The notes: a model not told the origin generated them from the sequence alone. Shown: positions 30,322 to 33,681, counted from the first letter of the stretch. The stretch is 64,000 nt of DNA from an uncultured Bacilli bacterium (GCA_934153945.1 CAKPFM010000003.1:3831-67830); one strand, 5' to 3'. Program-made: numbers and translations.

Positions 30322-33300
30322 CTAGGCATCACCCGAACATCTATAAAAATTCGTTTTACTTGTTGAATTCATACATAATCCACTAACTAATCCAGATAAT
30401 TCTTGATTATGTACAAATTTTTCACTTACACAAGCTTTAGAATTATTTAATCTACATTCCAAAGTGAAATCTGCATATCCACCATTTGACTCTCTTGTTT
30501 TATTGTAATTTCTAATTGCATTTATCGTTGCTGTATTCAATTCAAATCTATATAATGGTTCATTTTGATATATATTACTTCCATCTATCTTATTACCATT
30601 TCTAGTAACTGTTAAAATGTGATTTTGAACTAATTTTTGATCATTCCAATTAGTACCAGGATATCTACCTTTTACATCATCATTAAACATTCCAACACTC
30701 AACCCTGTTTGTGTTATAACAGCATCTGCTGTTTTACTTGGAAATGGATTTTCTAGTGATATTGTTCTATATATTATTCTTAATCCTGATAATGGACATA
30801 CTAGTGAATCACATGCATTTATAGCATCATTTTCACTTAGTCCTTGTACTATTTTTATTTGTACACAAGATGTAATATCCATATAGCCATCTACACCATT
30901 TTTATTTTTGCATGTATAAGTCTTTTTATCATCATCTCTGCCACCACCACATAATTTATTTACACAGTAATCATAACTGTAATTATTCAAACATGATGTT
31001 AAATTAATTGATTTATCATTTGGACAATAAGCGTCAAGTGGATTATCCCTACAATTCTTATCATAACATGTAAACCAATCATATGATTGTAAACATGACA
31101 TCATTTCCTCTGATTTAGAACCATTTGGACAAGCTTGAATTTCATTGTCACAATATTTAGACTGAGCTTCCGAACAAGTCAAATTTTCATCAATCATTAT
31201 ACTACTTAAATTTTTTCCAGAAAATTTAGTACCAGATGGACATAAACAATCAGTAGGTAAAGTTTTTGTTACATTATAATTACATGTATAATCATTTGGA
31301 CTATATTGACCATTTTCACCAAATCTGATATTTGACAATTTTAATTCATAAGAAACATTTGTAAGTGCATTATATGATATTGGCAAATTACTAAAGCCAA
31401 TTGTAGTATAATTACTATCATTTGATGGCCTTACAGTTTGCGATTTAAATGAATCATTTCTCTTTACAACATAATTATATAATAAATTAGTTGTTGGTAA
31501 TGAATATGTCACATTAACATTAGCAATAATTTGTCTATTATTTGTAACATTTTTAACTTGATTAATTAAATTTGAAAGATTGCTCTTTATAGTATTTATT
31601 CCTTGATTTGAAGAAACATTTATAAAATTATTATTATTTGACGAAATATTTAAATAATAATTAATACTTTTTTCTAATTGAGAATCTGTTATTATAGTAC
31701 CATATTCAGAATCACCCCATGATAAATCAACATTAGTACTATACTTGTATATATCACAACTTGTACCAGAGCAATTTGGTGTATAATTTGCACAAGTTTT
31801 CAATTGTTCTGAAAAATTAATTAATTCATTTACTTTATCTGTATAATTATTACATGCTGCATGTTCATTAGTACAAGCATTTGATCTGCTTTTAGCATTT
31901 TCATAATCTGTTCTATATGTATCGGCACGATTAATTATTACATTTTCTGATGAAGTATTCTCCATACTACCACAAGTTCTTTTTCCAGTATAATTTCCTG
32001 CATTAACTGAGTTTTTGCAAGTGTTATATGCACTATTAGCATTTCCTACACATGTTACTAATGTATTGTTACATCTTCTATTAGAACCTGTACAATTACT
32101 TCTAGCCTCTTGACAAGCAGATATACTATTATTTTTTGTTGTTTCACATGCTTGTAAAGCATTATTTTTATTTTGTTCATTTTCTTGATTACAAGAATTA
32201 ACTTCTGAATTATGTCTATCCTTCTCATTTTTACTATTTACAGCATTTTTGTACTCATCACTATTAATATAATTTTGCCATATATTATATTTACTGTTTG
32301 TAGTATTGTTATATGGTCTACAAGCATTTTCATAAACAGAATTACATCCACCATTACTAAGTCTCGATGTTTCATAATTTTTTCTAGCATAGCTACCATA
32401 TGCATTATTTGGAATACTACTTACTAAATTATTATAATATGTTGTCAACGGAATATTATTTATTGGATTATCTTCACCAGACATTACAACATAACAAGTT
32501 TTTTGACCACTAAATGATAATGGATAATTATTTTTATATTTTGATGATAATGTGCTTTCACTAGTAGGCCATATAATATATGTCCCTACTGATACTGCTG
32601 ATTTGATATTTCCTGGAAACACTTGTTGCGCACTATTTTCAAGGCAATATAGATTACAATAACTATTTATTTGTATTTCACTTTCACTATCACCTTTGCC
32701 TGGGATTGCAGTTCCTTCATCGCTTTGTTCAACATATTCATAATATGTACCTATATTTGAATTGTAGTTAGTACAAACAGCATCATTTCCCGTTTTCTTC
32801 ACTATATATTTTTTTTCAGTGCTGCCACCATTACAATATTTTAAATCGAAACTAGATTTACAAACTGTTTTATTACCACCATTTTGTACACATTGATTAT
32901 ACTCACTATCATCAGCATAATAATGTTTATTTCCGCCTGAATCAGTACAGTACAATCTATTTGTATCATTATCGCAATCTAAGGTTGATAACATACTTTG
33001 ATATCCAGGCGCTTCCCAATAATATAAACGTCCACTATAATAATCAGTGCTACTTCTATATTGACTTATAGCCCATCCAATACCATCGTCTATTCCACGA
33101 ACCATTGAATTCCCATTACTTCCAAACTTACGAGCAAGAGCATTTTTAATAGCGTTAGTACTGTCAGAGCCTTGCAATAACGTATCACATAGACTTTCAT
33201 CATTTAAGAGTTTGTTACAATTATAGTTGTAATATACATCTTTTGCTACTTCAAATAATGGTTCAGACACCGATGCGCTTTCACCATTTAGCAACCACAT

Positions 33301-33681
33301 TTGTGCTTGGGCAATTGCATAATTAATATCATTATTACTTGTTTTGGCTTTAATTGCATATTGATAAGCCTTTTTCCATTCAAGATCAGTTATTTCACGA
33401 GTTATTGTGTACTCAGTTCCATTTCTTGCATGTCTTCCACTATTTAGACATAGAGAAGTGTGACCTCCTAATGACATTTTATATACATATGCTTTGCCAG
33501 TCGCAGCGGTACGACCCAAAGTAGGAATTGGTATTTCTGATCTTTGACTGGAATTAATAGTTAAATTTTTTCTAGCTTCACTAATATCCTCTTCAGTACA
33601 AACTTTACTTTCTGCTTTAATATCATCACATACAAATAAACTAATTAAACATAAAATGATATATACTATCTTCTTTTTCAT
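30322..33681 (-). CDS. large secreted cysteine-rich protein (1119 aa), candidate pilus-tip/surface adhesin
   Basis: Signal peptide MKKKIVYIILCLISLFVCDDIKA. No C-terminal anchor. Very many Cys residues spread throughout, mostly in C-x(n)-C clusters in Asn/Thr/Ser-rich sequence. Confidence 0.6.
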   Translation of the reverse strand: MKKKIVYIILCLISLFVCDDIKAESKVCTEEDISEARKNLTINSSQRSEIPIPTLGRTAATGKAYVYKMSLGGHTSLCLNSGRHARNGTEYTITREITDLEWKKAYQYAIKAKTSNNDINYAIAQAQMWLLNGESASVSEPLFEVAKDVYYNYNCNKLLNDESLCDTLLQGSDSTNAIKNALARKFGSNGNSMVRGIDDGIGWAISQYRSSTDYYSGRLYYWEAPGYQSMLSTLDCDNDTNRLYCTDSGGNKHYYADDSEYNQCVQNGGNKTVCKSSFDLKYCNGGSTEKKYIVKKTGNDAVCTNYNSNIGTYYEYVEQSDEGTAIPGKGDSESEIQINSYCNLYCLENSAQQVFPGNIKSAVSVGTYIIWPTSESTLSSKYKNNYPLSFSGQKTCYVVMSGEDNPINNIPLTTYYNNLVSSIPNNAYGSYARKNYETSRLSNGGCNSVYENACRPYNNTTNSKYNIWQNYINSDEYKNAVNSKNEKDRHNSEVNSCNQENEQNKNNALQACETTKNNSISACQEARSNCTGSNRRCNNTLVTCVGNANSAYNTCKNSVNAGNYTGKRTCGSMENTSSENVIINRADTYRTDYENAKSRSNACTNEHAACNNYTDKVNELINFSEQLKTCANYTPNCSGTSCDIYKYSTNVDLSWGDSEYGTIITDSQLEKSINYYLNISSNNNNFINVSSNQGINTIKSNLSNLINQVKNVTNNRQIIANVNVTYSLPTTNLLYNYVVKRNDSFKSQTVRPSNDSNYTTIGFSNLPISYNALTNVSYELKLSNIRFGENGQYSPNDYTCNYNVTKTLPTDCLCPSGTKFSGKNLSSIMIDENLTCSEAQSKYCDNEIQACPNGSKSEEMMSCLQSYDWFTCYDKNCRDNPLDAYCPNDKSINLTSCLNNYSYDYCVNKLCGGGRDDDKKTYTCKNKNGVDGYMDITSCVQIKIVQGLSENDAINACDSLVCPLSGLRIIYRTISLENPFPSKTADAVITQTGLSVGMFNDDVKGRYPGTNWNDQKLVQNHILTVTRNGNKIDGSNIYQNEPLYRFELNTATINAIRNYNKTRESNGGYADFTLECRLNNSKACVSEKFVHNQELSGLVSGLCMNSTSKTNFYRCSGDA

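Follow-up and report, generated by a model that had tools for sequence, protein, structure and literature searches.

Adhesins with a thioester domain (TED) bind their targets covalently, and the Tie protein of plasmid pLS20 is the sole one of them shown to drive the formation of mating pairs between Gram-positive bacteria. Tie, the product of pLS20 gene 34, is an adhesin that carries a TED, is exported via Sec and has no sortase signal. Conjugation in liquid requires it, and replacement of its cysteine by serine makes it non-functional (PMC8092201). Here we describe a gene located on a stretch of 64,000 nucleotides of DNA from an uncultured Bacilli bacterium (GCA_934153945.1, CAKPFM010000003.1:3831-67830), which is referred to as the window in the following and from whose first letter all positions are counted. 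The gene encodes an exported, cysteine-rich protein of 1119 amino acids (aa) that we consider to be, with fair probability, the contact adhesin of a chromosomal, pLS20-like conjugation machine of the type IV secretion system (T4SS)/pilus type. The 1119-aa protein and its relatives carry a known type of head on a wholly different, cysteine-rich scaffold, in a phylum whose exported proteins usually avoid cysteine (PMC2823432).

The head of the mature protein is very probably a divergent TED. In characterized TEDs the bond-forming cysteine lies on a strand within the motif [YFL]C-hydrophobic-hydrophilic, a helix carries the motif TQxx-hydrophobic-W and the bond-forming glutamine is part of the motif hydrophobic-Q-hydrophilic-hydrophobic-hydrophobic, while universal conservation is limited to the cysteine and the glutamine (PMC6194298). 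All three motifs are present in the correct order as LC78LN, AQ125AQMW129 and YQ228SML, with alanine (A124) at the position where the consensus of the helix motif has threonine. The first motif reads FCLD in the family consensus, all 35 aligned homologues have C78, and C78, Q125, W129 and Q228 are among the invariant residues of 25 N-terminal domains that share 20-40% identity. An AlphaFold model was calculated from the family alignment (mean predicted local distance difference test, pLDDT, of 72; good at residues 30-800, poor after 810). It covers the TED region with a pLDDT of 80-92 and places C78 on a strand, Q125 and W129 on a helix and Q228 beside a strand. In this model, the secondary-structure context of each motif residue agrees with the topology of solved TEDs, and the predicted fold has the beta-barrel and the helical subdomain of a TED. 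Structure prediction and fold and profile searches had been suggested in the first-pass annotation, which had itself overlooked the thioester domain, and it was by these means that the N-terminal TED fold came out. Formation of a thioester between Cys78 and Gln228 can be inferred from the motifs and the predicted fold. The two residues are 150 positions apart. Class I TEDs have a Cys-Gln spacing of about 150 residues. Spacings of 171 and 204 are found in class II TEDs (PMC6194298), such that the domain looks class I-like, given its spacing and the lack of an inserted beta-sandwich.

Profile comparisons connect the domain with recognized TEDs. Searching 1.84 billion representative sequences with the TED profile yielded 69 matches, the remote ones of which are large Gram-positive surface proteins. 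When 30 of these remote matches were aligned, the sole invariant columns were C, Q...W and Q; SpaA repeats are present in 13 of the 30, Flg_new in eight, BspA-type LRR in five and Pfam TED in four. The profile matches one protein, P0087, over residues 68-251 (E 3.4e-5). This protein passes the Pfam TED model at residues 81-170 with 26.1 bits (cut-off 22), in a segment overlapping the stretch matched by our profile, and hhalign assigned the pair of domains a probability of 95.5% with both motifs aligned.

The reading frame is intact. It is preceded by the strong ribosome-binding site GGGGGTGA, 5 nt before the ATG, and the spacing to both flanking genes is 10-11 nt. A search of 5.8 billion proteins returned 38 homologues, 36 of them full-length, with identities of 31-100%; all stem from metagenome assemblies, and none is named or contains a Pfam domain. 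Given an uninterrupted frame and homologues from independent metagenomes in which the cysteines are conserved, an artefact of frameshifts, which the first-pass annotation had named as a possible objection, can be dismissed. An extra protein search with a profile of the full-length protein added two weak matches and no annotated member. The whole protein and five fragments produced chance matches only against Pfam and NCBIfam at E up to 10, as did the sequence profile against all PDB chains (E ~0.06), and tblastn against 72,556 plasmids gave no match. The family is therefore without annotation in the databases searched. It is found widely among uncultured Bacilli from the gut of humans, mice, rabbits and ruminants.

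Export via Sec is indicated by a signal peptide, which coincides with the sole 19-residue window above 1.6 on the Kyte-Doolittle scale (residues 3-24). The protein does not contain an LPXTG motif, the nearest string being an internal LPTTN at position 728, nor a C-terminal transmembrane or hydrophobic segment (it ends with ...NFYRCSGDA), and LysM, SLH or other wall-binding modules were not detected. Hydropathy and motif scans thus bear out what had been stated earlier about the signal peptide and the missing LPXTG and membrane anchors. A lipoprotein was considered and rejected: C18 is kept in just eight of 35 homologues and is not part of a lipobox.

The gene resides in a conserved, tightly packed unit together with machinery of the VirB11/CpaF ATPase type. 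It is preceded by genes for a 527-aa and a 214-aa membrane protein and followed by five machine genes, which encode a DUF5411 protein, a CpaB/RcpC-like protein, the ATPase and membrane proteins of 301 and 261 aa. Gaps between these eight genes measure -1 to 53 nt, and those between the downstream machine genes (26293..30310) measure -1 to 11 nt. The order 527-aa gene, 214-aa gene, adhesin gene is the same wherever a locus covers this side, the eight-gene unit is intact in every locus covering it, and more than 20 loci share the gene order.

The nearest plasmid relatives of the window ATPase are the VirB11/CpaF proteins of Bacillus plasmids of the pLS20 family. In one of these, pDSYZ, the operon starts with a 767-aa Tie homologue that has weak TED_2 and TED matches and continues with proteins of 165 and 128 aa, VirB11, proteins of 267, 243 and 120 aa, small ORFs (open reading frames) and a CD1115-family VirD4, followed by a transmembrane protein of the pLS20_p028 family (898 aa), a DUF5592 protein of 107 aa, a 192-aa protein, VirB4, a 205-aa protein and a hydrolase. 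The published gene table of pLS20 agrees with this order. In the window, the 1119-aa protein is followed by proteins of 133 and 275 aa, the ATPase, proteins of 301 and 261 aa and, further on, proteins of 899 and 107 aa, VirB4, a hydrolase and VirD4. In both Gram-positive T4SS operons, a TED adhesin gene thus lies upstream of an ATPase module of the VirB11 type, and several protein sizes are nearly identical (899, 107, 185 plus 594 and 204 aa in the window, plus the hydrolase). Like Tie, the 1119-aa protein combines a Sec signal and an N-terminal TED with the lack of a sortase signal or known wall-binding module, and its gene lies near the operon start, upstream of genes for a small transmembrane protein, a VirB11/CpaF-family ATPase and two membrane proteins. 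Conserved C-terminal and variable N-terminal parts are likewise common to both families. The differences are considerable. Tie has a class II TED (Cys68-Gln256) and stalk domains of the Cna/MucBP type, whereas the 1119-aa protein does not have Cna/SpaA domains and instead possesses 48 additional cysteines, a predicted helical hairpin and another C-terminal region. In contrast to the pLS20 operon, the locus is chromosomal, in a conserved context and with no relaxase nearby. A CpaB-like gene and three pilin-like genes as found here have not been described for pLS20, whose investigators state that Gram-positive conjugative elements lack pili (PMC8557374), and the 128-aa pLS20 protein at the position of the DUF5411 protein does not score with DUF5411. 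From the shared layout and the TED we would regard the 1119-aa protein as a positional and functional counterpart of Tie and not as its homologue. The earlier proposal of a contact adhesin gains support from the TED head and the Tie-like gene position.

Comparison with other adhesins sets the protein further apart. With the thioester proteins SfbI, Cpa, CpTIE, BaTIE, SaTIE and EfmTIE86 (PMC4450167, PMC6194298) it shares the TED fold, the three motifs and the arrangement as N-terminal head of a long exported protein. Unlike these, it is devoid of isopeptide (CnaB/SpaA) or ester domains and of LPXTG, its stalk is cysteine-rich and, according to the model, partly alpha-helical, and its gene belongs to a T4SS/pilus operon instead of a sortase locus. 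PrgB, encoded on pCF10 of Enterococcus faecalis, is also a surface adhesin of a Gram-positive conjugation operon and aids mating-pair formation in liquid (PMC8092201). In contrast to the 1119-aa protein, PrgB is anchored via LPXTG, has a lectin-like domain binding extracellular DNA and lipoteichoic acid as well as RGD motifs, few cysteines and no thioester domain. A purely functional analogy exists with the PilY1/PilC tip adhesins, which are also large, Sec-exported, without an anchor, encoded among pilus and minor-pilin-like genes and variable N-terminally while conserved C-terminally. The 1119-aa protein differs from them in lacking the PilY1/PilC beta-propeller by Pfam and in having a C-terminal region without fold match; moreover, its putative pilus would be Flp/Tad-like and belong to a monoderm.

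The second unusual property of the protein is its cysteine content. Two of its 51 cysteines are located in the signal peptide and 49 in the mature part, which amounts to 4.6% cysteine compared with 0.83% across the remaining 61 window ORFs. Asparagine (13.3%), serine (10.6%) and threonine (7.5%) are also abundant. C-x(2-12)-C spacings make up 28 of the 48 gaps between cysteines as compared with 17.4 +/- 2.8 in 2000 shuffled sequences, so that the tens of clustered cysteines in Asn/Ser/Thr-rich sequence claimed previously are indeed present. In at least 30 of 35 aligned homologues, 42 of the 49 mature cysteines are retained. Firmicutes normally keep cysteine out of exported proteins, and a bias towards even cysteine numbers is an accepted signature of disulfide formation (PMC2823432). 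Here, the number of mature cysteines is odd in 28 of the 34 members that bear a TED, including our protein (49 = 1 + 48), and even (38) in the single aligned member without TED motifs. This parity is as expected for one thioester cysteine plus pairs; since the sequences are related, it is supportive but does not amount to a statistical test. Cysteines also occur in other exported products of the operon (four in the 118-aa, eight in the 289-aa and six in the 214-aa protein) and in the pilin-like products (two each in the 151-aa, 152-aa and 63-aa Flp-like proteins), in agreement with what had been noted for this operon before. Judged by its sequence, the protein is probably disulfide-rich.

Behind the TED, the model and the conservation profile delimit five further regions. 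The core of the first beta-rich region (residues 321-400) has a mean identity of 67-81% over 35 homologues and is retained in distant orthologues without TED. The predicted alpha-helical hairpin or stalk contains heptad-spaced cysteines (523/530/537/544, 603/610 and 630/637), and its tip (residues 481-600) is hypervariable. The second beta-rich domain reaches mean identities of 70-76% at residues 641-680 and 721-800. The cysteine positions of the adjacent Cys-rich cassette are conserved across the family, and a sub-model of residues 815-915 consists of short helices (pLDDT 77-92). Neither beta-rich region has a Pfam match, and Pfam searches with the whole protein and with fragments did not reveal CnaB/SpaA isopeptide, ester, MucBP or other adhesin stalk domains. 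The C-terminal region, for which a fold search matched no known fold, is proposed to be a docking or anchoring module. Apparent stand-alone C-terminal-domain proteins from the profile search were discarded, at least two of them (P0042, P0052) being fragments beside 100-N scaffold gaps. The conserved IIYRTISLENPFPSK within this region (window 30739-30786) aligns non-significantly with EIMLTPINADDPFPNGK, which stands at the very C-terminal end of Tie adhesins of the pLS20 family (hhalign 0.2%; L028, 13510-13566). Four of the six Tie homologues examined (loci L028, L029, L030 and L033) retain the Tie motif P-[IV]-N-x-[DE]-[DN]-P-F-P-x-G-x-P-x-G-W, and the ...[DE][DN]PFP... motif near both C-termini may be due to chance or may be a shared docking motif.

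The 1119-aa protein has a mosaic composition, and its rate of evolution far exceeds that of the neighbouring proteins. Across species represented by metagenome-assembled genomes (MAGs), identity to the window sequences amounts to 54-95% for the machine genes and to 30-51% for the protein itself; the 527-aa and 214-aa proteins are intermediate (58-75% and 61-73%, against 84-95% for machine genes). On two contigs of the same species, neighbouring genes are 98-100% identical at the protein and ~97% at the DNA level, while the adhesin is 80% and 75% identical. Residues 841-960 are only 25-40% identical to those of P0002 and P0003, the homologues with these nearly identical neighbours, and at the DNA level blastn alignments with L025 and L026 are interrupted at window positions 30790-31166. 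In two other alleles, the TED (residues 41-280) has 22-45% identity and residues 321-480 and 601-720 have 92-100%. Distant orthologues keep the C-terminal two thirds and a high cysteine content (3.6-5.0%), many of them with unrelated N-terminal heads, and the TED profile matches only some of them (L006, L007, L009, L011 and L025-L027). Because the differences are block-wise and the C-terminal part is kept, the protein is best described as modular, with a conserved base that bears a head and cassettes open to exchange. Such a pattern is typical of surface proteins that determine specificity, and the exchange of cassettes within a species marks the protein as a specificity determinant.

We propose the following mode of action. 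After export, Cys78 and Gln228 would form the internal thioester and the other 48 cysteines up to 24 disulfides. The latter would stiffen a stalk made up of the beta region, the helical hairpin, the second beta domain and the Cys-rich cassette, and would substitute for the isopeptide-bonded CnaB/SpaA stalk of classical thioester adhesins. The C-terminal region (RIIYRTISLENPFP ... GRYPGTNWN) would keep the protein on the producing cell. Its docking partners could be the membrane proteins of 214 and 527 aa, which are conserved together with it, or the DUF5411, 151-aa and 152-aa minor pilin-like proteins, and the site might be the tip of a pilus. The exposed thioester would react with an amine on the surface of a partner, which could be another bacterium or possibly host or mucus material, and the covalent contact would stabilise the cell pair for transfer by the T4SS, as Tie does in liquid mating of pLS20. 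Selection for differing targets, or escape from immunity or exclusion, could then drive the exchange of cassettes at three sites, namely the head, the tip of the hairpin and the Cys-rich block.

As TED adhesins in Gram-positive conjugation operons are already known, this would not be a new kind of system. What is new is a TED on a cysteine-rich scaffold without isopeptide domains or sortase signal and with a novel conserved C-terminal module, as well as the cassette variation within a species, the chromosomal site in an uncultured gut lineage and the linkage to pilin-like genes. Only tentatively would we go further and suggest a new class of filament-presented adhesins, in which a thioester head and a disulfide-stapled stalk dock via the C-terminus on a Flp/Tad-like pilus of a Gram-positive T4SS, the whole being a vertically inherited chromosomal organelle of uncultured low-GC gut Bacilli for contact-dependent exchange or attachment. 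The protein offers handles for experiments, namely a domain of 220 residues with a 17-Da mass signature and a candidate docking motif, and bears on the questions of how the contact for DNA transfer between Gram-positive cells forms and whether such bacteria have extracytoplasmic oxidative folding.

Several findings weigh against a thioester-bearing contact adhesin of a conjugation machine. Pfam models PF08341 (TED) and PF20610 (TED_2) did not match the isolated domain even at E <= 10; as no curated model matches, the TED assignment rests on the predicted structure, the motifs and transitive profile links. Comparison with Tie proteins of the pLS20 family by hhalign revealed no homology beyond the Cys motif (3.5% for the heads, 0.2% for the tails), and BLAST links the window and the pLS20-family operons via three ATPases only. 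The parallel to pLS20 is therefore mainly positional. The conserved motifs of the C-terminal region are modelled at low confidence. Neither relaxase nor integrase was detected in the scanned ORFs of the window, and the chromosomal setting is conserved, which leaves DNA transfer as a putative function of this T4SS. None of the three pilin-like genes has Pfam support, so that the pilin assignments are based on a sequence pattern. In loci L008, L016 and L023, the eight-gene unit is conserved without pilin or T4SS genes directly after it. These three loci would be compatible with a host-colonisation adhesin on a Tad/Flp-type pilus that attaches covalently to gut mucus, to epithelium or to glycoprotein from the diet without taking part in mating, the T4SS being a separate entity. 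All sources are gut or rumen metagenomes, the classical TEDs of SfbI and Cpa bind host proteins (PMC4450167, PMC8092201), mosaicism within a species suits immune- or host-driven selection, and DUF5411/CpaF operons of gut Clostridia have been predicted to encode pilus or secretion systems with adhesin-like proteins (PMC9523054). We nevertheless regard this alternative as unlikely because in most loci pilin genes and T4SS come next, on the same strand and with short gaps, because the ATPase scores best as VirB11 or as TadA family conjugal-transfer-associated ATPase and because its nearest plasmid relatives come from similarly arranged operons in which the TED adhesin functions in mating.

A signal peptide without recognizable anchor, on a large, cysteine-rich and hypervariable protein with a C-terminal region of no known fold, could also point to an effector or toxin that is delivered by the Tad-like or T4SS machinery and released from the cell, an option entertained in the first-pass annotation. 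This is very improbable: Pfam and NCBIfam detected no toxin, enzyme or immunity family in the protein or in the adjoining genes, substrates of T4SS are not recruited by a Sec signal peptide, the head is an adhesin-type TED, and Tie of pLS20 also has no known anchor yet works from the donor cell (PMC8092201). The polarity of variation disfavours a polymorphic toxin as well, with a variable head and variable internal cassettes in front of a conserved C-terminus being the reverse of what such toxins display. The same lack of LPXTG, LysM, SLH or other wall-binding modules would be explained if the protein were a structural, wall-spanning part tied by its thioester to the peptidoglycan of the producer as a sortase-independent anchor. 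A stem-peptide amine could serve as the reaction partner, and part of the protein is strongly conserved along with the machine genes. An essential self-anchor should, however, be conserved, whereas the TED is the least conserved, swappable end of the protein and is replaced in many orthologues; in known TED proteins it is moreover distal to the cell (PMC6194298). Hardly any likelihood is thus left for this explanation. A last alternative concerns the disulfides alone and takes the cysteines as metal ligands or redox-active thiols. The organism is probably a gut anaerobe, Firmicutes generally exclude cysteine from exports (PMC2823432), and among the scanned ORFs of the 64-kb window we did not find a gene for a thiol-disulfide oxidoreductase (Dsb, Bdb or VKOR), which also counts against the disulfide stalk of the proposed adhesin. 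On the other hand, the cysteines are spread over about 1000 residues with spacings typical of disulfide-knotted modules, CxxC/CxxC ligand sets and metal-binding Pfam domains are missing, the parity (odd with TED, even without it) suits pairing, and paired cysteines are present in other exported proteins of the operon. Metal or redox thiols therefore appear quite improbable, and the disulfide-stabilised structure postulated earlier fits the conservation and the parity of the cysteines, though not the lack of an oxidoreductase gene in the window.

Table. Positions of the adhesin gene, its predicted parts and the surrounding cluster in the window. A slash marks the end of a signal peptide or leader.
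Feature	Position	Strand	Remark
Gene for the 1119-aa protein	30322..33681	-	single open frame, 1119 codons/aa
Sec-type signal peptide, residues 1-23, MKKKIVYIILCLISLFVCDDIKA/ES	33613..33681	-	n-region KKK, c-region IKA
Putative thioester domain (TED), residues ~24-245	32947..33612	-	motifs, conservation, profile links, AlphaFold model
Predicted bond-forming Cys78, in LCLN	codon 33448-33450	-	end of predicted strand 74-78
Q125 and W129 of helix motif AQAQMW	33307-33309; 33295-33297	-	predicted helix 118-131
Predicted bond-forming Gln228, in YQSML	codon 32998-33000	-	adjoins predicted strand 230-232
Beta-rich region, residues 246-420, core 321-400 (YCNLYCLENSAQQ...GTYIIWPTSE...QKTCYVVM)	32422..32946	-	predicted strands 291-355, 389-400
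Long alpha-helical hairpin/stalk, residues ~436-632, 13 Cys	31786..32376	-	from model
Second beta-rich domain, residues 637-806, conserved	31264..31773	-	predicted strands and one helix 695-715
Cys-rich cassette, residues 807-960, 15 Cys	30802..31263	-	exchanged between strains of one species
C-terminal region, residues 961-1119, 4 invariant Cys	30325..30801	-	among the most conserved parts of the family
C-terminal motif RIIYRTISLENPFP	30739-30786	-	conserved
C-terminal motif GRYPGTNWN	30643-30669	-	conserved
Whole cluster	12042-35973	-	all genes on one strand
527-aa polytopic membrane protein	34390-35973	-	first gene
214-aa protein, signal peptide, 4 mature Cys, C-terminal transmembrane segment	33692-34336	-	second gene; the adhesin gene is the third
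DUF5411 protein, 133 aa	29909-30310	-	Pfam/NCBIfam family match
CpaB/RcpC-like protein, 275 aa	29076-29903	-	Pfam/NCBIfam family match
VirB11/CpaF-family ATPase	27994-29073	-	Pfam/NCBIfam family match
Membrane protein, 301 aa	27078-27983	-	machine gene
Membrane protein, 261 aa	26293-27078	-	machine gene
63-aa Flp-like ORF, MKEAAG/EANMTVV..., one Cys pair	25967-26158	-	sequence pattern
151-aa pilin-like ORF, MKQAIG/..., one Cys pair	25496-25951	-	sequence pattern
152-aa pilin-like ORF, MKEAIG/..., one Cys pair	25028-25486	-	sequence pattern
Gram-positive conjugation-type T4SS	12042..23930	-	Pfam, NCBIfam

The organism itself belongs to a gut lineage of Bacilli. The G+C content of the window is ~25%, and Spo0A is encoded at 5103-5867, as had been reported. 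The label "Clostridia-type" given in the same place is probably wrong, because the related loci, which come from roe-deer rumen and from human (Hadza, MGYG), mouse and rabbit samples, belong to MAGs labelled as uncultured Bacilli, Bacillales or Erysipelotrichaceae. Genes for rhodanese, PGK, TIM, Spo0A and CdaA flank the cluster on one side and those for an ECF transporter, TruA, RluB, SpmA/B and PBP5 on the other. The same genes flank it in other species, and the cluster looks vertically inherited and not recently mobile. A recently acquired mobile element was rejected in view of these shared housekeeping flanks and the lack of integrase or relaxase matches among the scanned ORFs. At loci L006-L027, conservation is stronger in the machine proteins (70-95% identity) than in the adjoining ECF transporter proteins (36-57% in L008).

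The machine combines VirB11/CpaF, CpaB-like and Flp-like parts with a conjugation T4SS. The 527-aa and 214-aa proteins have no match in Pfam or NCBIfam. In gut Clostridia, DUF5411 has been noted together with CpaF and PilC in operons predicted to serve pilus formation or secretion (PMC9523054), and the start of the DUF5411 protein in the window, MKESFWG/VFVIM, resembles the leaders of the pilin-like proteins. The latter share a short leader ending in glycine, MK(E/Q)A(A/I)G, followed by a hydrophobic helix, and their genes are conserved 3' of the machine genes in most loci. If these candidates are pilins, a Gram-positive T4SS of the conjugation type would have a Tad-like filament. A gene for a prepilin peptidase was not found in the window. 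The 63-aa Flp-like ORF is preceded by a gap of 134 nt with a promoter-like site.

A 333-aa protein is encoded between the pilin-like genes and a T4SS_pilin-like pair (118 and 289 aa), with which the T4SS begins. It continues with a VirB6/TrbL-like protein of 899 aa, a 107-aa protein, VirB4 (185 and 594 aa), a SpoIID+CHAP hydrolase (839 aa), a lipoprotein (204 aa) and VirD4 (675 aa). VirD4 belongs to the CD1115 family (300.9 bits, NCBIfam cut-off 250) and VirB4 matches the Mbov_0397 family of NCBIfam, which comprises VirB4 of mycoplasma integrative and conjugative elements (E 7e-108). The two VirB4 ORFs (17242-19573, minus strand) overlap by 11 nt and match positions 100-276 and 294-891 of the Mbov_0397 profile; the gene is thus either naturally split or frameshifted. 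Membrane-protein families of mycoplasma integrative and conjugative elements are weakly matched by the 899-aa protein.

The distance between machine and pilin/T4SS genes varies, with insertions of 3 kb in L019 (15869-18791) and 5.6 kb in L021 (15956-21570). Because this distance differs among species, the two halves of the cluster are separable. In L023, tsaE, tsaB, rimI and tsaD directly follow the machine genes from 12510 on. In a related MAG (L006, 17474-18100), the 261-aa gene and the pilin genes are separated by an inserted PD-(D/E)XK transposase-like gene. It is 81% identical to the window ORF at 5999-6922, a weaker copy of the same family being located at 42271-43173. The window additionally contains an IS110 transposase (56655-57815).

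Some further observations concern the surroundings of the cluster. At its edge, between the genes for PGK and rhodanese, an ORF of 179 aa (11067-11606, minus strand) has the type IV pilin N-terminus MKKGFTLVELL; it scores 17.6 bits with Pfam N_methyl, below the cut-off, and has a weak GA-like domain match. The TIM ORF (6970-7758, minus strand) overlaps the upstream glycosyltransferase gene (7679-8896, minus strand) by 80 nt, and its Pfam match starts from residue 32, such that the true start of TIM is probably a downstream codon. At 46687-49611 (minus strand), a gene for an abortive infection-like Abi_2 protein is located beside one for an AAA_14/DUF4143 ATPase, a pair that is possibly a defence islet unrelated to the adhesin. 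Finally, a region of ~20% GC (58050-62680) encodes four proteins of 552, 223, 372 and 305 aa without Pfam match, the first of which has a signal peptide.

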